Assembly (NCBI GenBank): GCA_963714015.1
Contig: OY970223.1
Coordinates: 800,001-864,000 of the forward strand
DNA from: Vulcanimicrobiota bacterium
GTDB lineage: Bacteria; Vulcanimicrobiota; Vulcanimicrobiia; Vulcanimicrobiales; Vulcanimicrobiaceae
DNA length: 64,000 bases
Direction of reading: 5' to 3'
Both the position numbers and the translations under genes were made by a program. Of this stretch, positions 20,413-41,509 are shown piece by piece. Under the pieces are notes generated by a model. The model was given only the letters and a program-made list of their open reading frames with translations, did not search any database and was not told the DNA's origin. How positions within the stretch are numbered: the first letter of the stretch is position 1; the number at the start of each line of letters is the position of its first letter.

Positions 20413-20466
20413 GGTATAATCAAATGCCGGCGTTTCGGATCTGCCGGAAGGAGAAAAGACGTACTC

Positions 20467-22529: not shown

Positions 22530-23470
22530 GCTGCTTCGATCGGCAGCACGATCGGCTGCAGGCGTTGGTTCTTGCGGACGATGGTCAGGCGATAGCTGCG
22601 CGCCAAATCGATGAGCGTGAGGTGGCGATGCAGATCGTCCACGCTCAGAATGCCGGCGTCTTCGAAGGCGACCAGCAGATCGCCCTCGCGCAGTCCGGCA
22701 GTTTCGGCGGGACTTCCCGGTTCGACCGAAACGATCATCACGCCGCGCGAGGCGCGTAAATCGTGCGCGCGCACCAGACGGCGCGGGACCTCGATGTCTT
22801 GACCGGCGATCCCGAGGTAGCCGCGGCGGATCCTCCCGTCGCGCATCAAGATGCTGCCGATGAACTTAGCCGTGTTGATCGCAATGGCAAAGCAGATTCC
22901 TTGACCGGGAAAGACCGCGGTATTGACGCCGACCACCGCACCGTCGGCCGTTACGAGCGGTCCGCCGGAGTTTCCGGGGTTGAGTGCGGCATCCGTTTGG
23001 ATCACGTTGTCGATGAGCCGTCCTGATTGAGCACGCAGCGATCGTCCGAGCGCGCTTACGACGCCGGCCGTGACGGTGTACTGAAGCCCGTACGGGTTGC
23101 CCACTGCCACGACGAGTTGCCCCGGCTGGAGGTACGACGAATCGCCGAGCACCGCCGGCACTAAGTCGGGCGCGTCGATGCGCAAGACGGCGATGTCGGA
23201 GTGCTCATCCTCCCCTGCCAGCGCCGCCGGCACCTCACGGCCGTCCAGAAGGGAGACACCGATATGCTCGGCGCCGTGCACGACATGGCTGTTGGTCAGC
23301 ACGAAGCCGTCCGGCGTGAAGATAAAACCGGAGCCGTTTCCGCCGCGCCGCGCCGTGCGGACCTCGATCGCGACGACGGACGGGCTGACCGTTTGCGCGG
23401 CGGTCGTCACGGCTTGCGAGTAAGCATCCAGCGGCGCAGGCTCGGAAACTAAACGTAGAGGGGCAGACAT
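22526..23470 (-). CDS. HtrA/DegP-like trypsin protease with PDZ domain
   Basis: GSGF, TNSHVV (His), DIAVL (Asp), [15 protein letters not shown] (Ser); C-terminal PDZ SPA..AGL..GD. Confidence 0.93.
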
Positions 23471-23577
23471 GGTGGCCTCATCAACCCTTTACCGGACGGT
23501 CCCGGTTTCACGAAGGGCTCGGGTGCCCCGAGGCGAATCGGAGCCGGTCGACTCAGGCCTGTCCTGAGCTCCGAAGC

Positions 23578-23661
23578 GCCCAGATGGCGGAATTGGTAGA
23601 CGCGCTGGTTTCAGGTATCAGTGGCCGCAAGGCCGTGGGGGTTCGAGTCCCTTTCTGGGCA
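23578..23661 (+). tRNA. tRNA-Leu (anticodon CAG); CCA not encoded
   Basis: GCCCAGA/TCTGGGC acceptor stem, TGGCGGAATTGGTAGACGC D-arm, CTGGT-TTCAGGT-ATCAG anticodon arm, long variable arm GGCC-GCAA-GGCC, GTTCGAGTC T-loop. Confidence 0.96.
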
Positions 23662-23750
23662 ATTTCGTCTCAGCTAAATCCAAAGTATAAAAATACTTTG
23701 GATCGAGCACAGACGAATCGCCGAATACTTTGGCTTTGCCATTTCTCGTC
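23662..23750. repeat. Left-end motif cluster: three ATACTTTGG copies (one inverted) in a long fold-back
   Basis: CCAAAGTAT 23680-23688, ATACTTTGG 23693-23701 and 23725-23733; palindrome ATCCAAAGTAT-AAAA-ATACTTTGGAT. Confidence 0.9.
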
Positions 23751-24276
23751 CCGGCCTGTGGGCATTGCCAAAAACGGCGCGCGCTCGTTTCAAGAAACCG
23801 CAACAAGGCCCCGATCACATAGATCGCGCCGCTTTTTGCCGGGCTGACTAGCGACGTCCGCCGCGACCAACGGCGCGTGTCACCCACATAGTCGTTTGCC
23901 GTCGAACGCGGGTGCGCGTGGCCGGTCGTCCTCAAAATAAACCGCGGAGGGTGTCCTTCAGTGCTCTACGAATCGCACGATTTCCATGATCGCGCCATCG
24001 GTCAGCGTCAGCATGGAAGCTGGCCCACCGAACCGCACCTCCGTGCAACCTTTTGAAACCGAACGGTGTTTAGCATTGGGTCCCGGCTCAGCAGCCGCGG
24101 ATGTCCCCGTCATCGGCTCTTCCGGTTACGGTCAGTCTAAGAATAGAAGAGCGCGAACGATGCTTGATTCTTGTCTGGCATTTAGTAGCGAGAGATAAGG
24201 CAAGAACAGACTTAGAGTAAGGCGCTTTTCCAGCTTGCCGCTGGACGAGCTATCTGAATATAAGGATGTGTTGCCA

Positions 24277-24372
24277 GTGCGTAAAACAGCATGGGCGCTA
24301 TTTATTGGCGTCGTAGCTGGCCTTATTGCTAACCTCGTGTCAGCAATTTGCGCCGCCTTTCTTGGGTTTTAA
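24277..24372 (+). CDS. 31-aa hydrophobic peptide, type I toxin-like (not in ORF track)
   Basis: TAAGGA RBS; (M)RKTAWALFIGVVAGLIANLVSAICAAFLGF; followed by hairpins. Confidence 0.5.
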   Translation: MRKTAWALFIGVVAGLIANLVSAICAAFLGF

Positions 24373-24397
24373 CGAAACCCCGCGCCCGTAAAGGGCC

Positions 24398-24424
24398 AAA
24401 GGGAGCAGCGCAAGCTGCTCCTTC
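24398..24424. terminator. Stem-loop between the convergent peptide and transposase genes
   Basis: GGAGCAGC-GCAA-GCTGCTCC perfect 8-bp stem with GNRA loop; T-tail weak. Confidence 0.55.
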
Positions 24425-24450
24425 GCTATTTCCCGCGACGTAGCCACGTG

Positions 24451-25987
24451 CTACGACGCGTATGGTAGGATGATTCGACGCAGTGACGTGATGTTGGTTC
24501 CGAGTGTGACGCTCACGGGCTCGCGCAGTTGGTACTCCCACGCTGCGATCCGGCGTGCGTTATGAGCAATGGCGATCCCGTACGCCTCGTTCGTCTGAGC
24601 AGTTCCGACGAGTTCCTGCGCCAAGAACGTGCAAAACAACTCTCGCGCCGTCTCCAGGCTCGTTGGGCCTTTCGCCGGATACTTTTGCGCGAGCCGTTTC
24701 ATTTCAGCTTTACGCGTGCGCGACTTGATGTGGCCGCTGACGCGCTGCTCAGACGAAAAGACGCCTTCCATGCGCTGACGATACCGGTGAAACGTTCGGT
24801 AGATCGCGGGATGTTCGCGGCGCAGAAACTCCATGAACGCCATCGTCTCGCGTCCGAACTCGGCATTATCGGGATTCACCTTCTCTTTGATCATGACCAT
24901 CAGCATGATGCCTAGATCTTGAAGCGCGCCGTAGTGCTCGTCATCCCAGTAGGCTTTGTCGCCTACAACGAGCTTCACGTTCGGATTCAGCGCACGTCGC
25001 ACCAGATCGGGCAGGTGCTTCACGTCGGCGGTTCCTTCCCCGAATTTCAACGTGCAGCTGAGCGAGTAGATCAACCCTGACATCAAGCCTGCGACCGTGT
25101 GGACCTTGACGAAGCCCTTGCGGTACTTGGTGCGCTTTTCGATGGCGTCTTCGCTGAAGAAGTATTTCTGGAGAATCCAGATGGCCGCTTTTGACGTTCC
25201 GAAGCCGGTGGCGTCGATCCCTAGGATGCGATCCATTCCGCGGCCCGGACGTGACGACGCTTTCAGCAGGCGTTTGAGGGTGTCGAGCACGAGCGGATCG
25301 CCATGAACTTCGAGAGGGTCTCGTCGCTCAATGCCTGCTGATTTTTGTATCCCTCCCGAATGCCTCCGAGCATGCGGTACCGAGGGTCTTTTTCGAGATC
25401 TTCCCTCAGCTTGTGCGCTTTGACGCCCTCACCGGCCTTGACGAGAAGCGCATAGACGAGCGCCGCCCACGGGATGCGCGGCTGTCCCCGCTTGGATCGA
25501 CGCGGTCGGGGATCGGTCAGCAGGCGGCACATGTCGTAGAGGTGGTCGCGGAGGCGCTGCGTGTCTTCTTGAGCCTGGTTGACCCGCGTGGTGAACCGGT
25601 CGCCATACGGGTGGACTACCTGGGGCAGCTCCAGCCGGCGGGCGAGGGCGTACGGGCCCGGAACCCGGCAGGTTGTTCTCCAGGCAGTAGTAGGCGGTGT
25701 GCCCGCACGCGCCGACCCGGTTTGTCCGGTAGACTGTGACACATGCCCGTGATGCGCTTCGTCTTGTGCTGGACCTTGTAGAGCGCTCTCCGTTCGCCGT
25801 CGGCATGTTTCGAGTAAAAAATCCACAGCGTCGGCGACACTTTTTCGATGTCAAAGCGGCGGGCGTAAGTCTCGGACGCCTCGTCGTCGGGCAACATCGC
25901 GGGCAACAGAATGACTGGCGCTGGCAGCCCGAATTCGATGAGCTGGCTGGCGACGTCGTTGATTTCCCGCTGCACCTTGCTCATCAT
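24451..25987 (-). CDS. SWIM-finger-fused DDE transposase (IS4/IS5-like DDE_Tnp_1), ~3 frameshifts
   Basis: Joined ORFs 25616-25987, 25429-25854, 25263-25826, 24451-25290; C...ACGH finger, NQAQ...G.PR; ILGIDATGF, VVGDKAY and HRYRQRMEGVFS catalytic D-D-E. Confidence 0.8.
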
Positions 25988-25990
25988 TTG

Positions 25991-26262
25991 CTAGCGGCTC
26001 TTTCGAAAGCCCTCCCGTGATCGTGCAAACGCCTGCCAAATGTCTTCGGCCTCAGCGTCGGTTTGCGCCAGCAGCCATGACGCTGGAATCAGGCGGGCAT
26101 CACCGATCTTCCGGGGATGATGCCGGCATAAACGTCTGCGTAGATCGTGCGTAGACCAAGTCCGGTAAGATTTGCCACTCCGCGCGGACGGTAGTACAAG
26201 CGTTCAATGGGGGTTGCTCGCTCACTCTTTTGTGTCGTTGTCCTGTTTTTTTGCGTTCGCAT
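25991..26262 (-). CDS. Excisionase-like HTH (HTH_17/MerR-like), one frameshift near 26110
   Basis: RLYYRPRGVANLTGLGLRTIYADVYAGIIP then RKIGDARLIPASWL in the shifted frame; stop 3 bp before transposase start. Confidence 0.75.
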
Positions 26263-26353
26263 TCGCGAGGTGATCTCCCGGTTGCACAGGCAAATAGGTG
26301 ATCGAAGAAGACTCGACTCGCACACGCCACATTGTGTCGATCCTTCTTAATCG

Positions 26354-26742
26354 CTAACGCCGCTTCCCGGAAGTCTCCGTCACCTCCGCCTCGGGTGCCT
26401 CGATGGCCGCTGGCTTAACTTCGCGGCTCGCCGCGCGCATTAAGGCGTCCGCTTCGCGTGCATTTTTTTCAGGCAGCGGCACGCATTCTATCGTTAGCCC
26501 GGCGTCAAAGCGCCTTGGATCTTTCAAGTGAGCATTTGGTGAAAAGCCGGATAGGTCAGTAGCAGCGTGCGCTTCGGTGCCTGCACGAGAGCGACAGAAT
26601 AGATTTCACTAATTGCGTTGTGCACGTCGCCCGCGGAAATCGTTTTCCCGGCCGTAAGGCCGGAAAGTCGCCTCGATGCTTGCGACGATGGTGGCATCCG
26701 ACGCAGCCGCGTCGAATTCTTGCGATTCGGAGTCAGTTTCAA
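26354..26742 (-). CDS. Hypothetical protein (frameshift near 26525)
   Basis: ORF 26524-26742 continues as LKDPRRFDAGLTIECVPLPEK...GKRR in another frame; co-oriented with xis. Confidence 0.35.
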
Positions 26743-27180
26743 GAACTGCGTGCTGAACTCTACGCTATGGATCTCCTGAGCCGTGGCCTCGCACGTGATT
26801 CTCGACGACCGTGGTCAGTAACGCGTGTTAGCCATTCAGACGACTCTGCGCACTTCGACGCGCGGCAATTCACAGACGACGGCCGTTGCGCCCGGCGACA
26901 AATCCAACGCGGCGGCAACGCCTTCCGGAGCGGACTCCGACCAGGCTTCGAACAAGGACAACGCGTTCAATACGACGCCGTCAGCGCCGTCCACCCTGAC
27001 CTCATAAAATGCCGAAGACTGCATGCTAGCGCCAAGGCTGGGTCTACTACTGCGGCGAGGGAGACGCCGGATCGCTCGAATCTTCGGGCATATCACCGAA
27101 TCGCACGGATAGGTCGCCATCGCGGTTCTGAAAGGCCCCCCATCTTCACGTGTCCATCGTCGAACATGATGTACGTATCT

Positions 27181-27549
27181 CTAAACCGGCAATTGTTCGC
27201 ATTCCAATGCAACTGCCAATCGGTTGTTCTTGCTCACCATCTTCGTCTGCGCATCGTACGAGAGCAGTACGGCGTCGCCATGCATCCGAACGATCCTCAA
27301 CGTATACGGCTGGCACGCGGAGTCGATCTCCCTTGCGGACGCACCTTCAGAATAGACCTTCAACGTATCGCCGTTTGCGAGCGTCAACGATCCGCACAGG
27401 TCTCCCGAGCCGCAATCCTTCACGGCGGTGGCGACGGAACCGTCCCGCATCTGAACATGCAACGGACTGTCCAGACTCGGATCGGCGGCTAATCCGACGG
27501 CAGCGCTCGTCAAGAGAAGGGCTAGACACATAACACCCGTCCTAAACAT
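27181..27549 (-). CDS. Small secreted Cys-containing protein
   Basis: GGAG RBS; signal peptide MFRTGVMCLALLLTSAAVGLAA; paired Cys. Confidence 0.6.
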   Translation of the reverse strand: MFRTGVMCLALLLTSAAVGLAADPSLDSPLHVQMRDGSVATAVKDCGSGDLCGSLTLANGDTLKVYSEGASAREIDSACQPYTLRIVRMHGDAVLLSYDAQTKMVSKNNRLAVALECEQLPV

Positions 27550-27824
27550 TAAATCTCCGCGTCAAGACAAACGAAAAATCGCCAGCATCCAAAGAAGGCG
27601 CCCGCGTCGAAATTCGCTTCAGCGGGCGAACTCCCTGGGGCATGTCCGCGGTAGTCGCCCATGGACGCCGTCCACATGGACCCGTTAACGGGTCAACCTC
27701 CAACATTCTACGCATTGCGGTTGCCCGCAGATTCCACGTTGATAGCGCGCAATGCGCTCCAGCATCCATACAGCGCAGGCAGCGCCTCTCGTACGTTCCC
27801 AACGTCCGAATCTTGTGACTACTC

Positions 27825-28730
27825 TCAACTATTTTCAGCGTCGCCGTTTTCCATTCCACTGACACGCAACCACTGCTGGTAGGCGCTCAAAACCGTCGAA
27901 GCAACATGTACCGCGGGACCGAACTTCGCGTGCAGACTCTTTTGTCGTTCGACGTCAATCGCATGGTGAGCGACATCGCTGTCGTCACGAAGCCGTCGCA
28001 AAGGTTCGATTTCATCTGCAAAATAACCATAGGAAATCCCGAAGTTGCGATAGCGCCTCTGATAATCCCGATCCACACTGGGATCGCCAATTATGACCGA
28101 AACGGCTTTCCAAAGATTCAGTATCATCGCCGACGCAAGCACGTCGAAATCTGGCGTACCAAACTTAGCGATAACGCCTTGGTTTGCAATCAACATCAAT
28201 GCGTGCCGGTAATATATCAGTGCCCTGTCTAGTCGCTCGTCCGTCGTTGCGGAAAGCAAAGCGGCTCGCGAAATCTTTTCGCAAAGCATGTGTGTGTCGT
28301 ATGTCGTGAATGAAGCCAGATCGCCGAATCTAGGCAGCGGGTACGCCTTGCCAGCGTCGTCGCGAAACGAAACCAGTTCGTACGAAATCTGCTGTTCCAG
28401 TTGAACGGACGCCGATTCCATAAGCCGGTTCAAAGAATTCGTGATCCTGAAAAGTGCTTCCGAGTGTGACGCAACTGGCAAATCACACACGACCATGATG
28501 TAGTTGTCGTTCAGCGTCATCCGGAATCCATCTAATACGAAAGACACGCGCACGGCGTCCTCGTCTTCGCGATACCGTGACATCGTGCCGTGCCCGACCT
28601 TTCGGAGCGTTGAAGTATCCAAGGCCGCTGAAACAATTTCTGCTTGACCAGACGGATAGACGGTCTTCGTCCCGTCTGGGACGCCGAAGATGCCCGGAGG
28701 AAATATCTCCGCATGGACGATGTACGTCAT
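27825..28730 (-). CDS. Hypothetical protein with C-terminal HEPN-like (MauJ/ApeA-like) domain
   Basis: Intact 301-aa ORF; RLDRALIYYRHAL...LNLWKAVSVI...LRRLRDDSDVAH (R-x6-H). Confidence 0.6.
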   Translation of the reverse strand: MTYIVHAEIFPPGIFGVPDGTKTVYPSGQAEIVSAALDTSTLRKVGHGTMSRYREDEDAVRVSFVLDGFRMTLNDNYIMVVCDLPVASHSEALFRITNSLNRLMESASVQLEQQISYELVSFRDDAGKAYPLPRFGDLASFTTYDTHMLCEKISRAALLSATTDERLDRALIYYRHALMLIANQGVIAKFGTPDFDVLASAMILNLWKAVSVIIGDPSVDRDYQRRYRNFGISYGYFADEIEPLRRLRDDSDVAHHAIDVERQKSLHAKFGPAVHVASTVLSAYQQWLRVSGMENGDAENS

Positions 28731-28764
28731 TCACGAGCCTTTCACTGATTGACGCCGCGCGGCT

Positions 28765-31700
28765 CTACGCGAAGACGTCGGCATACTGGCGCACACCCAT
28801 CTTCATCAACTCGTCATTGACGTGCAGAGCCGTTTTTTCCGCTTCGCCCCCAGCTGCGCGAGCATTTCGAAAGATTTCGCGTACACCGTCCTGATTCATG
28901 AACGGAAACGGCGTCTGCCTCTTCACCAGCAGATCCAGTGCCGTAACGGCCTCCCGCGGATGCGTCGCGCTCAAAGACTCCGAGTTTCTCAATGACTCTC
29001 CATTCCATGTTTACCTGCCCGGCGGTACTGTGCAAAACTGCTTGCAGCATGGACAAGGCCCACCTTGGATCGACGTTGTCGGAAATGAACCAAAGGCCGA
29101 AAATGGCAAGGATCTTCCGACGTTCCTCGAGCGTTCGATCTGAATAGAGTTCCAACATTCGCTCGAAGAGTACCTCGAACCGATGCATCGTTTCATCCGA
29201 CCAGTTTGGCGAATTCAAGGCGTTCCCGGCGCTCGTCATCATGTGCGACAATGCGGATGGCGGCGCGTCGTGCAAGAACGCTGCAAGCGGGCCTTGTTGC
29301 AGATCTAGTCGTCCCCATAGGTACGGACCCAAAAAGTGGGATCCGAGCGAACCGGCGGGATACCAGTCTGTCCGATCAACGTTCGGCTCCTCGCCGATGC
29401 TAAACGCATGGCGCTCGTAGCGCGAGCGCAGGACGTCAAACGTCTCTCCGTAGATGCGATTGAAGACAAGGTACGCTTCCCAGGATGCGCGTCCAGCATC
29501 GTCGTTCGTAAATATCCGATCGAGAGCACCTTTCGTCCACGTTCTCGACTCCGCATAGATGGATACGAAGTTCTGTCCATACGTGGAACGGATCGCGCGC
29601 GTGTGCTCGACCATGGGATCCAGCATACGGTCGAGGAGCGAAAACAGTTCGGGCGCGTGCGGACGCAGATCGAATTCGCCCTCATCCCCTTTCAGTGCTG
29701 CGTTGATCCAGCGCGCGTACTCGAACAACGCTAGCATTCCGGCCCCGCGCGCAGAGTTCAGCGCTAAACTCCAAGGGTCGCCGTGCGATTCGCGTCCGGA
29801 GTAGCGGTCATCCTGATCGGGCGTGGGATCGCGGTCCGCGATAATTGCTTCGATGATTTGGAAAACGCGGGCGCGCAATGCGTACGGTAGAGATTTACCG
29901 CGCATCATATCCGTAAGCGCGAACGCGATCGTCTGCCGCAACGGTCCCCAGGACGGTTCGTCGTCGTCCGCTTCGTCCAACGTCTCGTAGTTGCGCTCCG
30001 CTTCGGCTGCGTCCGCCTTGCACATCTCCATCAGCGAAACGTACGCGTCGTAATCGAAATCTGTGCCGGTGGCATGCGGCCGAATCGCTTCAACGACGTG
30101 ACGCACATAGATCGGCGGCGGACTCGCTGACACGCCGCCATTGCTCAAGAAATTCGCGCCGCCGTTCGACGACGAGCGGCTGCAGCGCGCGCCCGAGGCC
30201 TTCGGGTGACGGTGCTAACCAGCCGCCTTCGGGCGTCCAGGATTCCAGGTACGTCAGCACCTCCGCCGTGGACATTTCGCGCAATTCTTGCGCCGATTTC
30301 GGAGCCTCCGGCCCCAGCGATGTTTCGGCGTGCTGAGGCGATTGGTCGTATTCTTGCGCGAAGCGCATCTTCAAATCGTCGAATCGCGCTAGATCGTCCC
30401 CAGCGAGGTACGGCGCAATCGGCTTCATCTGCTCGTACGTCTGACGGGCCCTGAACCGCTCGACGGCGGCCTGTAGGTCTTGTTCCTCGACGCGACCACG
30501 CAGAAGTACAACCGCCCGTGCTTTCGTCGTTATACCGGCACGTAGGCCTGCAACGATCTTTTTGCGGTCCTCTTCCTCGAAATCCGGAAAGAACCGAGAC
30601 AGGAAATCTCTTCGCTCCTTCGTGTTTTGGCGATAGGAAAGCAGGTTGCCGCGCTCGGCCAATGCGGTCTTTGCGTTCTCTGCTTCTCCGACGGCAGTTA
30701 TGATCGCCAGCGAGATGCGTTTGAAGACGTCGTGCTCGAACCTGCGGAGCAGTGAAAGAACCTCGTCAACGGGAAACCGGCCTGCATTCACGGCCGCGCA
30801 CGAAGTAGAGTAGATTTTGAGGGAAAGGCGCTGCTTTACGCCGTGCGCCATATTGGCGTCTTCGCGGATCTCGGGAAGCCAGCTGGTGGAGTAATCCGTG
30901 ACCGGCTCCCCTTCGATTTCCAGTGCGTCCTTCAGCCGATACGCCAGCATTTCAACGAATTCCAACGGCTCCGCTTGGCCGAGGAACGTTCGATACTATC
31001 TAGCGCCGCGACGTATTGCATGTCGCCGATCTTCGCGGCGGCCCGACGGCGTTTTCGACCCATGAGTTCGAACTGGTCGTCAACCGTTATCAAATCCAGC
31101 ACCGATCGGGCGATCTTTCGGGCCGCGGCGTACTCTCCCGACGCCGTGAAATGCTTTATGACGTTCAAGTAGGCGTATTGGAGTCGGTCAGGATCCGCTT
31201 CGAACCATGCCCTGAGCGGCTTTACCAACGTCTTTCCTGTCGCGGCCGGCATGTTGTTCACCGCAGCGACCAGTTCGTACACTACAAGTGTATTGTCGGT
31301 CTTGATGTTGCGGATGACGTCCGCGACTTGGTCCGGTATTGCATGCGCGACGTTTACCAGATACTTGCCCTGCGGCCAACGCATGAAAACAATTCGATCG
31401 CCGCTCCGACGGGAAGTTGGAGGCGAATCGAACATGTGACATCTCTTGAGCAGATAGAAAGCCTTTGGATTTTTAAGGCGCTCGAAAAAATATAGCGCAT
31501 CCTCGGGATGTCCAAGCGCCTCAATGGATGCGCGAAGTTTTCCCTCGTTCACCACGATTCGATCTCCGCAAGGTTTTCATCCATGCGTGCCTGTCGTTCG
31601 TGCCGATGGCCAAGTATGGCGTGCAAGATGTCCTCGAACCGGTCCCATTCATCAAGCGCTTCCGATTCGTTGCGCAGCTTGTGACGTGTCGGCACATGCG

Positions 31701-32237
31701 CTAACTTCTCGCCCTCCAAGCGGACGAGTCCCCTCGCTACATGGGTCATCTCTTCGGGATAGACGCCGTGCAGAAGGCCTAAGACTTCCGACAAGGCCTC
31801 CACGCGCTCCCCTTCGACGTTCGACTCCTGCGTTATCCAACGGTTGAGCGGGACGCCAACTCGAACCGGATCGTCACGGAACTTTCCGCGCTGGGGCGTG
31901 ATTGCGCGTCCCCCAGCGCAAGATCCCCGACCGCGGCGCGCCACTGTGCAAAGACCTGTAGTCTTTCCTCACGCCGCAGACGATCATGATCTTCATCGCC
32001 CCCCGCTGGTTCCAGACCCTCATAGTGATCCCGCAAGCGGTTCACGATTTCGCGCATCGCGTGGCCGATGAGGTAGGCCCTCCCCGGAAAACCCTCGCAC
32101 TGGCGCAGAATCGCCCCAGACTCGAACACCGCCGCCATCTCGCCGAACAGCTGCAGTGCCTCGACTATGTCGCGTTCTCGCTTGTTGAGTAGCGCGCGGA
32201 GGATGGAGATAGTCCCACCCAAGGACTCGTCCGGCAT
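28765..32237 (-). CDS. Large (~1150 aa) alpha-helical putative defence protein, broken by several frameshifts
   Basis: Consecutive overlapping ORFs 31833-32285, 31549-31944, 30932-31555, 30090-30965, 28814-30148, 28765-28992; N-terminal GHAMREI..RL motif; FF..L..P...F..PP...WP...YL...A...P motif. Confidence 0.6.
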
Positions 32238-32637
32238 GCCGTCTGTTTTTGCACTAACCACCACGACGAATCTTGCTTCGCACAATGCCGTGCCATATGC
32301 CTCGCATCAGTTCATGTGTGGCGCACCGCTTTTGCTACTAGGAATTGGTCTAACGTCCGGTGTTCGGCGCGCTCAAAGCCGAGCGAGTGGCTCCAATCGA
32401 TGATTTTGTGAATGCCGGCCATGAAGGCAGCCGCCGGCCCCCAGGCGCTATATCGTGAATGGAACGAGCACCCTGGTGCCTTTCGTTGACGCGGCGGGTT
32501 CATCGACGCTACCATCGACGCCCTATGAGGATCCTGGATATTGGCCCCGAGAAGGCCCAACCAGCGGATTCGAATCCTGAGCAGGCGACGCACGCGCAGT
32601 GCCCTATTAAGAGTGGCAAGGAGACGCACATAAGGAT

Positions 32638-34492
32638 ATGAGCGTCGGACGTGCCATCGCGTCACAGAACTTCCCACCCCTGTTCGGGCCTTATCACCGG
32701 ACGGAGACTCTCGCTGCCCTGGCACTTCATGGACCGATGCCGGCACCGGCGCTGGAGCGCATTTTTTCGCTACAGACGTCCCGGAGTATACGTCGCGAAG
32801 GCCGAATCGCGCCAAGATGCTGGTCCCGGTTCGAGCCGCGAAAGGCCAACTCGGGGGCACCACGGTGATCGGAGATCAACCCCCGGCTTCCGGTGCGTTC
32901 GGAACTGGAAGACCTGCTCGGCGCGCTGCGCCGCCACCACGCTGTGCGGCCATGAGCAACCCGGTTCTTCCTATACAGATGGCGGCGTTTTTGGAGGGGC
33001 CACGCCCCCGAGGTAGATCTGGATTTCCTTTTTTGCAACGCGGGTCCGCACCCGGACGCTGGTGGTGCCGAGGGCGCTCGGTGGCGAGGAGACCACCGGA
33101 CGGCTACAGCGATCGGTTCTGAATTTTTTCTCCGGACGCGTCCGTGGAGCAGTCGTCGGATTCGTCGAGGATGGAATTCTGGAACTCGACGGGTAGACCG
33201 TGCGGTTCAACCAGCGCCTTACGTGGCTTAATGAGCTGTACGCGCTTTTGCACGCCTTGGGACATCTGATGGGCGACGTCGTCAGCCACGCACGCTCGGC
33301 GAATGACGAACGGCAGAACAATCCAGGACGATCCAGTGGTGAGCTATGGAACGCGCTTCCGCCTTTTCGGAAGCCGCGCAAACCAAGCGATGCTCGCATG
33401 CCTAGCCGCTTTCGGTCCCAAACGTTCAACGGCGCTTGCCGCCGTATCGGCGGTCAAAGATTCGACGGCGATCCATAGGCTTGTAAAAGCCGGCATCGTC
33501 TGCCGGGTACCGGGAGCCAAAGCCCGTGCCGGCGATTTCTATGCGCTCAACGCGGCACATCCGGTCTATTCGAAGCTCGAGCCGCTTTGCGCACCGACGC
33601 GATACTGGACGAAAGCCTTCCGTTTCGGCAACCGGGGTTGCTGTACGGACGGGCCGGACGGGTTCGAGGAGCGGCAGTCGTTTCCGCCACCCTATGAAAT
33701 CTTCGGAACCCAAAAGAAGGACGCCCGGGCCAACATTGTGGCCACTCTGGCGCACACCGAGCACGCCGAAGCCGATGCTGGCTCCCTTTCGCGCCTGCTC
33801 TCGGAGCACGAAAGCACCTCGATTTTGAAGGCGTTGAAACGGCTTGCGAAGCACGGCGCGCTCGCCAGACGGGAACTTCGTGGCCTCAATCTGTACCGCG
33901 TAAATCCGGATGAACGCGCCATGACGAACTGCTCGACCTGCTTTTTGCGATGGGTCGGGCATGGCCACGCGACTTCTCCGAGGGAGGCCAAGTCGAAGCG
34001 CGCCTGCATCCCCCTAGGCGGAACGCCATCGAACGCGCTCGCCGCACCGAGGCTGGTCGGCCCGCGGCAATGCCGGTTGCCGCGACATGAGCAAGTCTGC
34101 CCTGCCTCCCGTTCCGCATGGTGCGTAGACCGAACAGAGAGCAAAGAAGACTTGGAAACGCAGGTGTTGCGTCAACGAACGGCGCGCGGCCGCCATCGAG
34201 CCCAACTTTGCTCTCACCCACGGCGCGCGTGCTCTTCGCCCTGACCGACGTCCCCCGTCAAAGCGCTACGTTAATTGCGGAGGCGGGGTGTGATCCCCAT
34301 ATCGGTCACCGGAGTCTGCGCCGCCTCATTCTTCTCGGCCTTGCGAAGCGAACCGCTATAGGGCAAATCCGGCTCGCCGAGCCTTCGCCGAATTCCGGAA
34401 TTTTCAAGGTCACATTTTTGGGGTCACCCGTCGAGCCCGGCTCCGCCTCGTATCGGCGAGCGGGGAATCTCACGTGTCTGTCGGCTATTTGA
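32638..34492 (+). CDS. Tandem winged-helix repeat protein (~5 repeats), multiple frameshifts
   Basis: TAAGGA RBS; recurring units LFGPYHRTETLAALALHGP, LFATRVRTRTLV, LFGSRANQAMLACLAAFGP..YALNAAHP, IFGTQ..ARANIVATL..LYRVNP, LLSPTARVLFAL. Confidence 0.6.
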
Positions 34493-34660
34493 TCGACGGG
34501 GCCGGGCAGACGCCGCGTCATCTAGCCTGGTGCGGGCGCATCATCATCGCCGGCGAGAGCAGCGCGAAGGTGCCGATGGGATTGTGCTACTCTTGTTCAC
34601 CGGCAGCTCTGGGGGCCACCAGCGAACGACGCCGCGGCGTGAGCGCATCCAGTGAGACAT

Positions 34661-34811
34661 CGAATACTTTGGCTTCAAGCTGCTATACGGTAGAATACTT
34701 TGGATTCACGCAGTAAAAGCGTAATACTTTGGATTTAGCCATTTCGTCTAGCTTAACCCAAAGTATTTCGAGTAGGGTAAGAAGATCTCTCGCCGCAGAT
34801 ACTTTGGGTTA
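34661..34811. repeat. Right-end/junction cluster: five ATACTTTGG copies around the ATTTCGTCT core
   Basis: Direct copies at 34664, 34695, 34724 and 34799; inverted copy 34758-34766; core at 34741-34749. Confidence 0.9.
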
Positions 34812-35259
34812 GTGCACCGTCACGCTCGCCCAGACGACGTGCGGATGGAAAAGAGTCATGCGTAGGTCAACGTTGATCCTGTGGAGCGCTCCCGAGGGAG
34901 ACGCACTTTTCAAATATCGCAGGCGGTTTTCAGGTCTACCTTTTGCAAGTCGACGGCCGCGCCGAACATTTCGCACGCCTCGACCTAAATCGGAGGACGT
35001 TTACGCAAGATTCAGCCGGTATTTGAAGGACGAAGTATACCGATTGTTACGACGGTAGTTCAGCCGCAAACGGTTTGGCGACGGACGCCACAGTCTATCA
35101 GGACCTTGAGCGTGTTTTCGGACCTTCCGCTCGTAGACCGAGCAGAGCACGACGGCTCGGCCACATGACGCGGCCGTCCGTTAACGGCGAGCGTCGTCAG
35201 TAGCCGGTCCTCACATTCGCGTCGAAGAGGGGGGCGGTTCTTGGTCTGGCTTCCGCGCT

Positions 35260-35670
35260 ATGGGCTTGGTTCGCGAAATTGCAAAGGCAGCCCGGGACGC
35301 CCATTATATTGCAAGGCGCACGCGATATATCGATGTAGTCATTTATCGCCAAGGGCGTAACGATGCCGTCATTATAGAGGCAAAAAGCCTCGAGGAGGAC
35401 GACGCTGATCGAGCCAGATGTGCCATAGACCAGCTCCTACTTTACAGGTGCTTGCATGCCGAAATGTACGGTCAATCTGCTGGCCTTGTCGCAGCATTTA
35501 CGCGAAAACCTCGGTACAAGAGTTTTGATCTTACCGAGATTCTAGTGAAATGCGGCATTGGCGTTTTGTGGCGCGCAGACACTTCATTTAACGGGACTGA
35601 CTCGGCTCGACAATCCGTTTCATGGATTTTCGACCAACAACACGAAATAAACAGGCTCATTCAGGCGTGA
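35260..35670 (+). CDS. PD-(D/E)XK nuclease domain protein (probably 3' part of a longer gene starting ~34858)
   Basis: IDVV...IIEAKS...AIDQLLLY motif set. Confidence 0.7.
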   Translation: MGLVREIAKAARDAHYIARRTRYIDVVIYRQGRNDAVIIEAKSLEEDDADRARCAIDQLLLYRCLHAEMYGQSAGLVAAFTRKPRYKSFDLTEILVKCGIGVLWRADTSFNGTDSARQSVSWIFDQQHEINRLIQA

Positions 35671-36140
35671 TGCTGTTTAGTAGTGACGAAAAGGCTCCTT
35701 CGCCGTCAACTCTTGTGCTCTCGAGGACCGTCAGTACGACTCAGCGTACTGGGTAGCCGGTAAAGTGGTCCAACGATAGATGCAGAATCAAAAGGCTCGG
35801 GCTCAAGGAGACCACCATGCGCAGTTGCTAGCCGGTGCACTTCGCTGCTACCGCGCGCATGTGAACGTTGCGAGCGGTTGCGCTCTCTTACAGCGCGCAC
35901 GGTGTTCGCACAACGCCGAAGATTCCGTCATTGTCGCTTGATTGAATGGCACGTGCCGGTGGTTACAGCATCGACTTGTCCATCATCCCGCCGAACGCCG
36001 CGCGAATACAATTTACCCTTCAAAGTTCGCACGCAACCCCGTCGCCGCATCTGGAATGTTAAGCTCCGGCGCAAGAGCGCAGGTGCGTCCGCGAGTCCCT
36101 CGCCGTCATAAGAAAGCCTCCGGTTTGAGCGCCGCGTAGG

Positions 36141-38345
36141 CTAGGCGCATTTGTTCCATCTCGATGCGCACGCTGTCCGCATCGATATGGTCGTACGCCG
36201 CGCCCGCAGCGGCGGCAAGCGCCATCAAACATTGCTGTCGTCCGGGTCGATGTCGGCGCCGTTTTTGTGCGGCCCGAACAGCGCGATCGCTTCCAAGCGC
36301 TGGCGCAAAAACACCGGCATCGCGATAACGGGGCGCGCAGGACTGTCGGCCAAATCGCCGGCGTTCCAGCCGAGGTCGCTCAGGCGCAGCGTTTCCCGTT
36401 CGGATTCCAAGTGCAGCACGAGCGTGTCGTCCGCGGCAATCTCGCCGTTTGTCTCTTCATCCCAACCGAGCGCAAATTCGCGCACATATGCCCCCTTGCC
36501 GGCTCGCGATCCGAATCCGTCGACGTGATAAACGATCGCCAAGTTGGGCCGCATTTGCACCCGCTCACGCCCCTCTATCATCGCTCACGCCGGCGGCAGC
36601 ACGGGCACGTAAGGCGAAGGAAGCCGCAGCGCTTCGTCCTTGAGCCACAAAAGTGCGGCGGCGAGTTCCGCTGCAATGGTGCGCAATACGAACTGATCGT
36701 CCGGATCGTACCACTGACTGTGCGGGCGCGCGCCCACGTAAATGCCGCCGTGTACCCGGCCAACGACGGTGAGCGGCAGCAGTAGGCCATTTCGCGGCAG
36801 CAGCGTCTCGATGCCCCGCACGTCGACGGTGGCGTGCGTTCGGCGCAGCCGCATAAACGCAGGATCGTCTTGCGGCACCACTTCAGGTGCCCGTTCAAAC
36901 CCGTGTATCGCGTACGGAGTATAGACGCCTTCATCAAACCGGTAGATCGCGCAGGCACCTTTAAACGTGCGATAAATTTCACCGATTGCATGACGCGCGA
37001 GCGCATCGGGGTCATGGGCTTCCGAAAAATCTTCGACCATGGCGAGAAGCCTATCGTGAGCGGCTTTTTTCTCGCGATAGAGCGTGCGTTGAAGCCCGTT
37101 TTCAATGTGGCCGCCGATCCAGCGCATGGAGAGGCCGAGCAGAATCGGAATCGCGAAAGAGACGGCGATATTTCCGAACCGTCCGAGAAAGACGTGATCT
37201 AAAAACGATTCCGTAAGCGCAATGACGGCAACGATGACGCCGAGCAAGATCGCATACAGTGCGGCGCGGCTTACGAAAAAATCGAGGTCGTAGACGTTCT
37301 TGGTGAAAACGACGTACGCAACGGCAACGGGCATCACCATTATCGTGAGGCCAAGAGCGCCGTCGAAGGGCAAACTCAGATTCCACAAGCCGGTAACGAC
37401 CGCATCGACGGTCGGGCCGGAGAACGCAACAACCAATGACCAGAAAATGATGCGGACGGTCAAGGGTTGCCGCTGGCGTGGCTCGACCGACGCAAACCAA
37501 ACGGCGGCGAGAACGACGACGAACCCCAAGATGTATGCGATCGCCAGCGCGAACGCCAGCCCCGACTGCTGCGCATCGACATCGCCCACGAACATATAAC
37601 GGATCTCAAAGTAGCCGAAGACTGCAAGCAAGATCACGTTTGGCGCGTACAGCACCCGGAACGCCCACAGCGCAACCGGCGAAACTTGCACCGGCACGAA
37701 GCTCTCGGCAAACAAATAGAGCAGCACGAGCGACAGCGCAGTCGTCAGCACGGTTACGACCCACGACGCCACCGCGAGCGGTCCGATTGCAAAAAAGCCG
37801 TTGAACCCCCACATAAACGGCAGTCCTGAGATTGCAAGCGCCTCGAGAAAGAGCCCGCCGAGCAGCGAAGCGCGGTCCCGCCCACGCAGGAGCAACAATG
37901 CTCCGAAGATCGCCGAAAACACACTGAGCACGTCGCTCACAAGCGCAGACACACGATCGTTCCACGGCGCGCTCGTAGTGCGCCGAAGAATACGGACGAT
38001 CTTACCGTCGCGCTGATACGGAAGGCTAAACGTTTGCTCCGCGCCGACAGAGCCAAGCGTAACGTCGTCACCGCCGTTATAGCCCGAGACCGGCCCGCTA
38101 CCCCACAAATTAAAACGATAGCGTTCCAGCGGCGTCAACAATCGAAAATCCAGCACGTCTCCCGGGCGCAACCCGGCATCGCGTCCGGCTTTCGTCACGT
38201 GCGTCATCGTGAATACGGGCCAGGCTCCGCGAGACGACGATTCATATCGCACGATCGACCCTTGATTGAGGGTTCCAAAAATGCTCGCAACGACGAACAC
38301 GAGCGTCGCAACCGAGATGAGGGCCCCCACGACGGTACGGGTCAT
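36141..38345 (-). CDS. Membrane sensor-like protein: PDZ-like + multi-TM + two GAF-like domains (frameshifts near 36590 and 36230)
   Basis: AGLRPGDV, ~9 TMs, LLLPL.V.GRVHG.IYVG and IAMPVFLRQRLEAI.LFGPH GAF-type strands; no output domain seen. Confidence 0.65.
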
Positions 38346-38410
38346 GCTTGTCCGCTTCGACAAGCGTAGCAGAGAACCGCCTGGAAACGCGGCGTAATGC
38401 GCCCTTGAAT

Positions 38411-39445
38411 CTACACCCGGCCGTGCGCGGCGCAGGTCGCGAGGCTGCCGCCGAAGACGACGCCCAAGCCGCATTGCGAGCGAAACATCCGCCGGTTGTC
38501 GTGCGGAACGCCGCGTACGAAGGCGTAATCTTGATTGGTTCCACCCGGATGGCGGCGATGCATGTAGGCGATGAAGTTCTTGCCGCGGGCGAAGCGGTAC
38601 GGCCCTTGCGCTTCTCCGCCGCACGAACGGTCGAGATCGTCTTCGTTCGGATTGGTGTCGGCAGTACCGAGCAGATAGGTGACGTGCCGCTTGACGTACC
38701 GCGTTTCGAGCGTTGCCGCGGTGCCCCTGACGTAGGGCGGCGCGCCGGCGATGCCGTAGCGCCACTGGTTGAAGTCGGGGCAGTTGCGCTGCGGCACCGG
38801 ACGATCCTTGCTGAAATAAAAGTACGACGAAGGGTTGGCGATCACCAGGTGCACGGGGACGCTTCCCGCGGCCGGATCGAGCTGCGGCGCGTTGCCGACG
38901 ATGGCGTAGCGGTCGACGATCTGTCCTCCCGCGGAGTGTCCGGCGAGCACGATCTCGCGCATCTTCGGAAAATAGCGCTTGTCGGCAAGGCGCGCGATCA
39001 TCGCGTCAAACACCGCGTAGGTGCTGATCGGCGCGGGCGCGACGGCGGGCGAGCCTCCCGGCCATTTGGAATCCCAGTAGAGCGTGCGCGGTGAGACGTT
39101 ATGTCCCGCAAGATCTTCGCGTTCGACGAATTGCGGCGAGATGACGATCGTATTCGCGGCGTGCGCGTCGCGAGCGGCTTCCATCGCGGTGTCATAATAA
39201 TAATCGGCGTCGCGCAGCACACCGTGCACCATGATCAGCGCGCGCGTCGCGTTGCGATCGCCTTCGAGCCCCAAGTTGCCGTAATAGCGCGCGTATCCGC
39301 TGCCTTGCGGCGTGCGCACGAAAAACTGCCGCGGCGCCAGCACGCCCGAATTGTCGGGCTGCGGCGTTTCGGTCGCCATCGGCAGCGGCGCGGCCGCCAT
39401 GGCAAAAACGAGCGAAGGCAATGCGAGCAAGGCGAGCAGTTTCAC
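38411..39445 (-). CDS. Secreted alpha/beta hydrolase
   Basis: Signal peptide; MVHG oxyanion motif, LAGHSAGGQ nucleophile elbow, ANPSSY, V.GV.HD. Confidence 0.85.
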   Translation of the reverse strand: MKLLALLALPSLVFAMAAAPLPMATETPQPDNSGVLAPRQFFVRTPQGSGYARYYGNLGLEGDRNATRALIMVHGVLRDADYYYDTAMEAARDAHAANTIVISPQFVEREDLAGHNVSPRTLYWDSKWPGGSPAVAPAPISTYAVFDAMIARLADKRYFPKMREIVLAGHSAGGQIVDRYAIVGNAPQLDPAAGSVPVHLVIANPSSYFYFSKDRPVPQRNCPDFNQWRYGIAGAPPYVRGTAATLETRYVKRHVTYLLGTADTNPNEDDLDRSCGGEAQGPYRFARGKNFIAYMHRRHPGGTNQDYAFVRGVPHDNRRMFRSQCGLGVVFGGSLATCAAHGRV

Positions 39446-39499
39446 GATCGATGTCTTCGACCGGAGGGGCACCGCTCCCCGGAGAATGTCGCGCCATGG

Positions 39500-40169
39500 T
39501 CGTACGCACCGTCCTCACCTTGCTGTGCTGCCCGACGTCGTCCATCGCGCCCCAACACCAACCGTTTACGCAGATCGCCGTCGCTTCTCGCCATGATACG
39601 TATCTGCCAGTCGGGCCGCAAAAGCACTGCGCAAAGCAGTGTACGTTCCGGCGCGGATGCGGTATCATCGACGGCCGTGTCAAACCTCGAGTACACGCTG
39701 AAGGCGAAGCACAGGTGGCGCCTTCGACATCATCAGATCAATCCGCACGCGCTTCAACGGCGGCGCGTTCTGGATGCCGGAATTCCGTGCTCTGCTGGAT
39801 GTGCTCGCATCGTATATGCCCGAGGTCGTCGGCCACGCGGTCGAGCAGCGGGGACACAGAATCTCCAGCAAGCGGGGCACGTCGCATTCCGCCGGGCAGA
39901 AGTTCCGTCTATTCGGCAGCCGCGTGAACCAGGCGATTCTGGCGTACCTGGCGGCGAACGGACCTGGCGGCAAGACGCAGATCATGGCGGCGGCGAACTG
40001 CGACGTGCCGGCGATCCGCCCGCTCCTTGAAGGTGCTGCCGGGACGGTCTGCGTCATCCCGGCACGCTCTGGCAACCGCGGTGATCTGTACTCGCTGAAC
40101 GCCCCCCATCCGGTGTTCGCGGAAATCCGCGCGCTGCTCCGGACCGAGGCGATCCGCAAGCAGACCTAG
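39500..40169 (+). pseudogene. Remnant paralog of the tandem winged-helix protein
   Basis: WMPEFRALLDVLASYMPEVVGHA...FRLFGSRVNQAILAYLAANGP...GDLYSLNAPHPVF aligns by eye with 33200-33580; 5' boundary uncertain. Confidence 0.65.
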
Positions 40170-40231
40170 GCGCACCTTTTCGATCCATTGCGGTCAGCGC
40201 GCGAAAGCGACGGACGCGGGCGTCAACTGAA

Positions 40232-40283
40232 TAAACTTGAAATCATGCGACATCGAACAGCGGCGGACAATTAAACTTGAAAT
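40232..40283. repeat. 12-bp direct repeat TAAACTTGAAAT x2
   Basis: Copies at 40232-40243 and 40272-40283 in AT-rich DNA just after the wHTH remnant. Confidence 0.8.
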
Positions 40284-40471
40284 AGTAAGCGGCCTTTTGA
40301 AGGCGCAGCATCGGCTATATGCAGCTTAACTAATAATCAGCGCGATATGACGGGCCGTCCTACGTGACGGCCGCACGCTCGACTGCACTAAAGGGCCTGC
40401 TACTGCCTAGTAGCAGGTAGTGCTATAGTGCGCATGCATGACGTTGCTGTCTTAAGATTTGGAGTTTTCCT

Positions 40472-41509
40472 ATGAATTCTCGCGCTTCGCTTCGGTCGAT
40501 CTCGCGCCGTGACGTTCTGGCTTTCGGAGGCGCCGCCGCTGCCGGCACAGTGCTGGCTGCTTGCGGCTCGCACGGGGTCGCCTCCGGACCCTTGAGCGAG
40601 CCCGACGATGCGGACCGGTCCATAGCTGCAGGGCGCTTGTCGATGGCGGAGATAACCTCGAATTCGACTGCTCCGCCGCCGTGGGTGCGCAAAACGATCG
40701 AAGACGTCATTCAAGCGCAAGGCACCGCGTCGAATGGCGTTTTTGCGATTGAGGTCGACCGCAAAGATATTCCAAACGTGCACCTGCGCGGCGTTCCGAT
40801 TCTTCCTTCATTCGAAATAAACGGGACGCTAAATTTCCAAAGCGTCGACGGCGGAGGCGGCAACGTGTTCACGAATTCCGATCTTTGCCTAAAAGCGGAC
40901 GAAATTGACCCGTTCATTTCACAACTCATCGATCACGACATCATCTTTCAGGCGGAACATCAGCACTTCTACGACTTCGATCCGCTCGTGTGGTTCATTC
41001 ACTTCCGCGCGTATGGGGATGCGAAACAGGTGGCGAGCGGCGTTAAGGCGGCTTTGAACGTTACGTCCACGCCCTTCCCGCAGACGCTCCCGAAAAATCC
41101 GACGACGCCGCTGCCCGCCGAGGAGATCGGTGATATTTTAGGTGCGGCTCCAAGCGTGAGTTCAAACGGCGTGGTCAATTATTCGATTCCGCGCGCGAAT
41201 CCAATGAGGCTCGGAAAATTTCAGATCAACCCGTATCTGAACATTATGACGCCCGTCTCATTCGAGCCCTTGGATCGTAGCGGCAAGACGGCCGCGGCCG
41301 TGCCGGATTTCGGCATGGTTGCCGATGAAGTACAAAACGTCGTGCGCTTGATGCGCTCGCGCCGATGGGACATCGGTTGTCTCTATAATCAGGAGACAGA
41401 CGAACACCCGCAGCTCGATTTTTCGCATCAGTTCAAGACCGGCGACCCCATCGCGCTGGCGCACGAAATTCGAGACGGCTTGAATCTGATGGACATGCGG
41501 TTCATGTAA
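40472..41509 (+). CDS. DUF1259 (LppY/LpqO-like) Tat lipoprotein
   Basis: SRRDVL twin-Arg, LAAC lipobox; two internal repeats with AEHQHF...WFIHF and LYNQE...FSHQ. Confidence 0.78.
   Translation: MNSRASLRSISRRDVLAFGGAAAAGTVLAACGSHGVASGPLSEPDDADRSIAAGRLSMAEITSNSTAPPPWVRKTIEDVIQAQGTASNGVFAIEVDRKDIPNVHLRGVPILPSFEINGTLNFQSVDGGGGNVFTNSDLCLKADEIDPFISQLIDHDIIFQAEHQHFYDFDPLVWFIHFRAYGDAKQVASGVKAALNVTSTPFPQTLPKNPTTPLPAEEIGDILGAAPSVSSNGVVNYSIPRANPMRLGKFQINPYLNIMTPVSFEPLDRSGKTAAAVPDFGMVADEVQNVVRLMRSRRWDIGCLYNQETDEHPQLDFSHQFKTGDPIALAHEIRDGLNLMDMRFM

Follow-up and report, generated by a model that had tools for sequence, protein, structure and literature searches.

The junction at positions 34724-34811 of the 64-kb stretch of DNA analysed here (hereafter, the window) consists of the right end of one element, a 9-bp duplication and the left end of a second element, and probably arose through insertion of a newer DDE transposon at the fixed position already held by an older relative. 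The newer element would have inserted immediately after the tRNA-Leu(CAG) gene and pushed the older one downstream. By direct reading, the segment consists of ATACTTTGGATTTAGCC, ATTTCGTCT and AGCTTAACCCAAAGTAT ... ATACTTTGGGTTA, with the right end stopping at 34740, ATTTCGTCT occupying 34741-34749 and the second left end starting at 34750. The order of right end, core and left end noted in the preliminary description of this DNA is confirmed by the direct sequence at 34724-34766, as is the view of the second end as a variant of the first left end: the 17-mer at 34750-34766 differs from that at 23672-23688 in two of the 17 positions. Further in from the two left ends, the first and second elements show no similarity. 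The tRNA-Leu(CAG) gene, which is the sole tRNA gene of the window and the sole Rfam match over positions 23000-41000, is followed by ATTTCGTCT, one C and then AGCTAAATCCAAAGTAT. The same nine bases are thus found on both flanks of the 11,070-bp proximal element (element 1; Table 1), but the extra C at 23671, which separates the left 9-mer from the first left end, breaks the perfect register; one extra base at the left flank is found also in G329. The layout of the left end of element 1 recurs in five genomes (G272, G301, G084, G329 and G099), and terminal AGCC is present in 10 of the 11 tabulated right ends. The left end together with the adjacent duplication copy (23662-23718) forms an imperfect hairpin, with 23693-23718 similar to the reverse complement of 23662-23688, and the segment 23725-23751 resembles the right end plus the duplication.

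Table 1. Features of the tRNA-Leu(CAG) locus in the window (TSD, target site duplication; HTH, helix-turn-helix; strand "." where none applies)
Feature	Position	Strand	Basis
tRNA-Leu(CAG), target gene, intact after insertion	23578..23661	+	ARAGORN, Rfam
TSD copy 1, ATTTCGTCT, bases +1..+9 past the discriminator	23662..23670	+	sequence; register common to relatives
Left end of element 1: extra C, terminal site 23672-23688, opposite sites 23693 and 23725	23671..23740	.	
Transposase gene, N-terminal zinc finger and DDE_Tnp_1, broken into three frames	24451..25987	-	Pfam PF01609, E 6e-9
Short excisionase-like HTH ORF (label by eye)	26089..26325	-	no Pfam match
Cargo ORFs, several frameshifted	26400..32300	.	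no Pfam match
Four-winged-helix partner gene, broken	32611..34244	+	HMM pieces
Right end of element 1: direct sites 34664, 34695 and 34724; terminal AGCC 34737-34740	34661..34740	.	
TSD copy 2, ATTTCGTCT (the "core" of the preliminary description)	34741..34749	+	sequence
Second left end, older element: terminal site 34750-34766, one opposite site 34799	34750..34816	.	
Partial winged-helix gene, paralogous to the broken one above and 48% identical to it	39702..40166	+	HMM, tree
Possible relic of a right end with another type of motif, no TSD after it	40228..40345	+	TAAACTTGAAAT twice, unique in genome

The 17-mer of the first left end has eight matches at no more than three mismatches on both strands of the whole 3.56-Mb genome. 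There are 20 exact copies of ATACTTTGG in the genome, against 6-12 expected under Markov models, and eight of these fall in two clusters, at 23680-23733 and 34664-34807. Within the window alone, ATACTTTGG with one mismatch has 12 matches versus 4.56 expected, a count reached by one of 100 shuffles; since this enrichment is mild, the signal lies in the clustering. When a weight matrix is trained on 12 sites of G272 alone, with none from the window genome, seven of the eight clustered window sites take the top seven ranks genome-wide and the eighth takes rank ten; the top-scoring site of the genome is the second left end at 34750. The match of this end to known left ends was equalled by none of 200 shuffles, and by five of 200 when the first left end of the window was excluded from the comparison. 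The recognisable sites of the second left end are two (34750 and 34799) rather than three.

Elements of this kind are not confined to the window genome. The transposase HMM matched 29 of 385 genomes at E<=1e-15, and in seven of the eight genomes in or near the tRNA-Leu group (G000, which is the window genome, G272, G308, G301, G084, G329, G099 and G096) the element lies downstream of the tRNA-Leu(CAG) 3' end; G096 contains a transposase remnant with no tRNA within 60 kb, and its element ends were not found. The preliminary description took the junction as the strongest argument for site specificity, a role that belongs rather to this position recurring across genomes. In the tRNA-Leu group, the left ends consist of one terminal site followed by oppositely oriented sites, with motifs that differ between genomes, and the termini of the clade are NG[CT]T on the left and AGCC on the right. 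The comparison with relatives did not place the 34750 end itself next to the tRNA: no searched genome holds the same element, only the same class of end, and in G001 and G002, both of the same genus, this tRNA-Leu(CAG) carries no element. When the G272 transposase was used to scan for related loci, only G272 itself was recovered from the genome collection and nothing from metagenomes, viral contigs or plasmids, and no homologues were found among longer proteins; three metagenomic loci from a back-translated motif scan had no transposase HMM match and were dropped.

With one mismatch, the end motif is found in 11 of the 385 genomes of the class, and among the 10 of these other than the window genome it forms clusters only in G272, which belongs to the same family as the host genome; the single matches in G001, G080, G092, G211, G255 and others are lone and were dropped. 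In G272, tRNA-Leu(CAG) is followed by CCAACGGCC, a left end, an intact transposase gene, 26.8 kb of sequence, a right end, CCAACGGCC again and a second left end with the full three sites; beyond a contig gap, there are a second right end, CCAACGCAA and the chromosome. Past this outer right end, the flank shows synteny to the G271 tRNA flank as well as to the present window from 57.5 kb. The two inner 9-mers are identical whereas the outer one, across the contig gap, differs at three of nine positions. In G308, a degenerate left end follows the right end and the duplication. The proposed tandem insertion at one site is supported by the G272 array, with its shared end motif and outer right end, and by the G308 locus. 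Altogether, a right end-duplication-left end junction is present at three of the 11 tRNA-Leu right ends (the window genome, the inner one of G272, and G308; 0/200 shuffles in each case). The displacement of the older element by the newer one, also proposed earlier, is a less direct conclusion: the identity of the inner 9-mers in G272 as opposed to the outer one, together with the degraded state of the distal element both in the window and in G308, suggests that the proximal element is the newer.

A distinctly unlikely alternative is that the transposase prefers its own ends, or that an end-to-end dimer was inserted, in which case no recognition of the tRNA is implied. The transposases of IS30, IS911 and IS21 favour DNA next to their own ends, the junction has the expected right end-spacer-left end form, the order of events is a deduction, and the right end closes with GC-C, similarly to the GC-A of the tRNA, so that a later insertion after a right end would produce the same array. 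However, at eight of the 11 right ends the following sequence does not match a left end; these right ends meet plain flank, so that the first insertions need no resident end and would have chosen the tRNA. Furthermore, the spacer equals the host's own tRNA flank, the two left ends of the window belong to different elements, as their divergence indicates, and the 9-mers of G272 differ between the inner and outer positions. In the favoured reading of successive insertions at one target, the position is in all likelihood read from the DNA of the upstream tRNA gene and not from the duplicated bases.

The nature of the nine bases is best assessed across hosts. A pattern of the tRNA, 10-11 arbitrary bases and GYT matched 44 of the 385 genomes of the class; the 21 loci compared (562 kb in total) comprise 20 of these 44 matches plus G304, with G301 having 450 bases and 23 left out, and thus were selected non-randomly, for a left-end-like pattern. 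Seven of the 21 loci contain an exact copy of AGCC plus the nine bases that directly follow the tRNA at the same locus, a number that rises to nine when one mismatch is allowed; at nine other offsets there was no exact match, and 100 control offsets gave a mean of 0.03. In 12 of the 21 loci, no right end was found at one mismatch or less, partly due to short contigs and the 20-40-kb limits of the search. G095 is a probable tenth duplicated locus, with the right end AACC. Over the ten hosts, identity between the left and right flanks spans positions +1 to +9 (8-10 of 10 at each position) and falls to 2-4 of 10 beyond, and the enclosed elements range from 794 to 32,063 bp. The ten duplicated 9-mers have a mean pairwise identity of only 2.7 of nine bases and lie wholly outside the tRNA. 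Because the shared 9-mer differs by host and four elements contain no recombinase gene, what had been called the core is, on this comparison of flanks, a 9-bp target site duplication of bases +1..+9 after tRNA-Leu(CAG) and not an attP core.

These data bear directly on a reading in which recombinase-borne elements in tandem form an attP-like P-O-P' junction, with ATTTCGTCT as the crossover core and the repeats as arm sites. Inverted sites do flank a short core, the 3' ends of tRNA genes are classic integrase targets, and a tyrosine-integrase island sits at the same tRNA in G308. According to the preliminary description, such a junction would look the same, but the two can be told apart: besides the complete change between hosts of a core that in a recombinase system would be conserved, there is no match to tyrosine (PF00589) or serine (PF07508) recombinases inside the elements of G000, G272, G308 and G099, the conserved gene encodes a DDE transposase, and the integrase island of G308 repeats the tRNA 3' end itself, unlike the DDE elements. 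This reading is largely refuted and can be considered highly improbable. At the G308 locus (L091, G308:C4:575978), the integrase island displaced the DDE element from the tRNA; the DDE element is still located at +10 of the duplicated tRNA 3' fragment from the island.

On the reading of tandem transposon insertions, the older element of the window is a relic of which only the paralogous winged-helix fragment remains. This fragment groups with the tRNA-Leu proteins of G000, G272 and G308 (support 99/99), and its presence at 48% identity within the same clade indicates that another family member did lie downstream. No transposase of the second element was found by HMM search downstream. The weight matrix of the ends, as the preliminary description had proposed, was run downstream for the second right end; nothing convincing emerged over the next 95 kb, nor did a family-wide terminal matrix detect it, and a third duplication, sought as AGCC plus the 9-mer genome-wide at one mismatch and over 100 kb at three mismatches, gave nothing convincing. 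Two right-end candidates, at 34996 and 42576, were rejected for lack of a duplication, the latter also lying inside a GH43 gene. The two TAAACTTGAAAT repeats at 40231 and 40271 are suggestive of a relic right end of another motif type: the score of this segment against the right end of G084, one of 11 right ends compared, was reached by one of 400 background windows. If real, such an end would mean that there was either a deletion fusion or a third element. The same-genus genome G001 is syntenic again only from 47770, and steadily so from 57339. Just inside the second left end, there is a 136-aa ORF (35260-35670) that by eye resembles a PD-(D/E)XK nuclease; it has no Pfam match, and no homologue in the window genome or the loci searched.

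The missing partner right end and third duplication, along with the recognition of two sites out of three, could be taken to mean that the second left end is an accessory site pair or an internal rearrangement of a single element. This possibility appears very remote given that the second left end starts at the base right after the duplication, as left ends do, that eight of the 11 right ends lack such sites past the duplication, that the winged-helix fragment is located 5 kb downstream, and that G272 has a complete left end at this place as well as an outer right end. An assembly artefact in this single-contig, indel-rich genome, as could be surmised from the many frameshifted ORFs in the element, is hardly credible because the two left ends differ in sequence and G272 and G308 independently show the same type of junction.

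Both elements of the window are broken or relic, and their gene content is best understood from intact homologues. The three pieces of the transposase match an intact 554-aa protein of G272 at 39-53%, and intact homologues of the winged-helix protein, of 449-479 aa, are encoded inside the G272, G308 and G099 elements. The short HTH ORF has no blastp match outside the window genome in the relative elements searched and hence is not a core gene. Comparison of the C-terminal transposase piece with 1.84 billion representative sequences yielded 166 matches, 10 of these at E<=1e-30 and mostly of 530-630 aa; the ten matches looked up are unnamed or annotated as "hypothetical". In the alignment, the eight intact transposases share a CxC...CxH zinc-finger pattern, invariant D, D and E residues spaced by 97-141 (D1-D2) and 61-63 (D2-E) residues, and the Y-x2-R-x3-E-x6-K motif; the copy in the window differs from this motif at the Y and K positions. 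Because Pfam names SWIM only in a shorter, 410-aa relative, application of this name to the long proteins rests on the alignment. None of five transposases passes any NCBIfam cut-off for an IS family, the G272 protein scoring 43.5 bits against a cut-off of 270 for IS1182 and 33.5 against 140 for IS5. In structural comparison, the model of the G272 transposase (pLDDT 59) has the Tn5 transposase as the best match (Z 10.8, rmsd 5.0, 248 aligned residues), with retroviral integrases close behind. The model of the G272 winged-helix protein (pLDDT 82) consists of four helix-helix-helix-hairpin repeats with local likeness to ArsR/MarR winged helices, none of it significant. Neither model had a Foldseek match at E<=0.001; the first row for the winged-helix protein, yeast TFIIIC tauB on a tRNA gene (E 0.002, TM 0.13), was given no weight.

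The transposase is highly likely to bind the three repeated sites at each end and to attack the target with a 9-nt stagger. The selection of the target is less clear. The four-winged-helix protein is the leading, modestly favoured candidate, given its co-occurrence with the transposase in the G272, G308 and G099 elements as well as in the ssb, tmRNA, tRNA-Ser and fliE clade regions described below. Selection by the transposase itself is less probable, and a host factor or an RNA in this role is unlikely. Targeting of tRNA-Leu falls in two clades of the transposase tree (39 rows, C-terminal 330 residues, built without the short remnants of G301 and G084), and in the winged-helix tree a single tRNA-Leu clade is neither shown nor rejected (p-AU 0.29), so that the winged-helix protein stays a candidate selector.

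The distant transposases sort by target in the tree. The ssb clade is represented by eight loci flush after the ssb stop codon (L004, L068, L073, L076, L079, L080, L082 and L002, a set that includes the unpublished genome G021, on which no other claim rests), with winged-helix partners in frames of 443-687 aa in five of the eight genomes. The last nine bases of ssb are duplicated exactly in three of the seven ssb loci examined for a right end. Left-end-like sequences after the right ends of this clade are suggestive only: their scores were reached by seven (G016), 25 (G215) and 175 (G375) of 200 shuffles. Three loci of another clade lie after the tmRNA 3' end (L069, L098 and L100); one of these, in G158, has an exact 9-bp duplication 41 kb away, and the G149 tmRNA locus, with two transposase and two winged-helix pieces, is possibly a tandem array. 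A 45.6-kb array on the minus strand (G000:C1:2850562-2896206, covered in part by L006) is located at the 3' end of fliE, a gene named by eye from its protein, with the left end after GATGTAGCG and the outer right end followed by GATGTAGCG after AGCC, an exact 9-bp duplication; it encodes an intact-looking transposase of 551-568 aa and two winged-helix proteins, and contains an internal right-end-like stretch near 2859720. Two further loci are directly after tRNA-Met(CAT) (L182 and L183) and two are no more than about 10 kb away from tRNA-Ser(GGA); right ends were not found at the loci of either kind. The left ends of L182 and L183 begin with TGTACA and contain a long inverted repeat, unlike other clades. 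Eight relatives of 406-448 aa form a separate transposase clade; the three that could be placed have three different neighbours, consistent with ordinary insertion sequences as far as genomic context can indicate. Copies of the 410-aa, IS-like relative in G000 share 65-79% DNA identity with those of eight other genomes, and at G000:C1:3052657-3056453 such copies are present as broken and inverted pieces.

The family resembles Tn7-like elements, including the cyanobacterial tRNA-Leu-targeting elements with TnsD, as far as these are described in the accounts cited below, in that it relies on DDE chemistry and carries cargo, has more than one transposase site at each end, and inserts in a set orientation and at a constant distance from a conserved gene; further shared features are clades that differ in target and, compared with some Tn7-like lineages, multiple insertions at one site. 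Tn7-like elements, according to these accounts, need TnsC and a TniQ-domain selector (PMC11837452), generate 5-bp duplications (PMC9881144), insert 29-33 bp after tRNA-Leu (PMC9881144, PMC10293859), have TGT...ACA termini and possess a target immunity that is overcome in some lineages (PMC11014353). In contrast, no TnsC/TniB or TniQ/TnsD was detected inside the four elements, the transposase is of the DDE_Tnp_1 type and not TnsB, the duplication is of 9 bp, insertion occurs directly after the tRNA, the ends of the tRNA-Leu clade are NGCT...AGCC, and the candidate selector is a tandem winged-helix protein. Specifically, TniQ (PF06527) had no match in G000, G272 and G308, its sole match in G099, which served as the positive, is on another contig, and 14 control genomes had none; for the AAA+ ATPase, searched as the TnsC/TniB family PF05621 only, all matches in the four genomes are outside the elements, the second element of G272 having a contig gap. 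The absence of TnsC implies that target immunity is likely lacking, so that elements stack, and the tandem junctions at three of 11 right ends suggest, at the level of sequence, that such immunity is weak or none. The analogy with Tn7 drawn in the preliminary description therefore stands for behaviour but fails for membership.

Members of the IS4 family carry the Y(2)R(3)E(6)K motif, space the DDE residues as D(60-110)D(100-150)E, make duplications of roughly a helical turn (7-13 bp) and measure 1.2-5.4 kb (PMC2266710). By this account, the present family is similar to IS4, in particular the IS10/IS50 subgroups and Tn5, in the YREK motif of all eight intact proteins, the 9-bp duplication and an RNase H fold closest to that of the Tn5 transposase in a model of pLDDT 59, and departs from it in the D2-E spacing (61-63 versus 100-150), the N-terminal zinc finger, three sites per end, a size of 0.8-32 kb with cargo and a partner gene, gene-end targeting, and ends that do not carry the subgroup signatures. 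Thus, the family works like Tn7 yet is a member of neither the Tn7 nor the IS4 families as defined. Tsy is described as a non-Tn7 element that has a dedicated target selector for a conserved host gene (comM) and employs tyrosine recombinases (PMC10293859). Like Tsy in that account, the present elements are non-Tn7 and carry a selector gene, here a candidate one, and unlike Tsy they combine a DDE transposase with target site duplication. Unlike tyrosine and serine integrative elements in general, they have no recombinase gene and no att core shared with the target gene. Casposons also are TIR- and TSD-bearing elements found at tRNA genes without an integrase; they differ in the transposase, and no Cas1 or DNA polymerase family B Pfam match was detected among the window ORFs scanned. 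Elements of the TnGBS/ISLre2 type are large, position-specific and DDE-based as well, but are IS256/Mutator-like and target promoters, in contrast to the gene 3' ends and DDE_Tnp_1 transposase seen here. No description of a two-gene family of this kind was found in the literature searched by topic through titles and the opening parts of abstracts, a corpus outside subscription journals, supplements, ISfinder and TnCentral, and such a transposon family at fixed gene ends is likely undescribed.

For bacterial DDE elements, the best-known case of insertion at a set position next to a conserved gene is that of the Tn7 machinery of four to five proteins. The present family reaches a Tn7-like outcome at several targets that are unrelated to each other, using a transposase of the IS4/IS5 superfamily plus no more than one conserved partner. 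The origin of target selection from an ordinary insertion sequence thereby becomes directly testable, and the family is a candidate for a compact tool with which large cargo could be integrated at safe sites. A general model can be tentatively outlined whereby this is a minimal, two-protein, ATPase-free system of targeted transposition unrelated to Tn7, in which a Tn5-like zinc-finger/DDE transposase is aimed by a modular four-winged-helix protein, with variants that pick the ends of different genes (tRNA-Leu, tmRNA, ssb, fliE, tRNA-Met and tRNA-Ser), elements of up to 30-45 kb that insert flush and stack without immunity, and an origin from the 410-aa IS-like relative. If so, swapping the winged-helix protein would retarget the element. 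The family also might account for integrase-less islands at tRNA, tmRNA and gene ends that are missed by integrase-based island finders.

Finally, the target flanks contain what are likely excision footprints. After several duplications (G082, G016, G215, where this occurs three times, and G375), bases 2-9 repeat with a period of 8. Among 70 unique tRNA-Leu flanks, period 8 is present in five (four without a homopolymer case), compared with one or none for periods 6, 7, 9, 10 and 11. Excision would remove the element plus one base, and joining of the ends would leave an 8-bp scar. Past tRNA-Ser(TGA) in G000 (G000:C1, c3426179), bases 2-9 of the nine-base flank recur directly after it as two 8-bp repeats, with no right end found in 150 kb. 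At L159 (G332) and L018 (G309), the left ends are shifted eight bases away from the tRNA, with an 8-bp repeat in between that is exact in G309 and degenerate in G332, as would be expected if a proximal element had inserted and later left. Genes for end joining, namely pieces of LigD and Ku, are encoded at 17774-21321 of the window, 2 kb upstream of the target tRNA.
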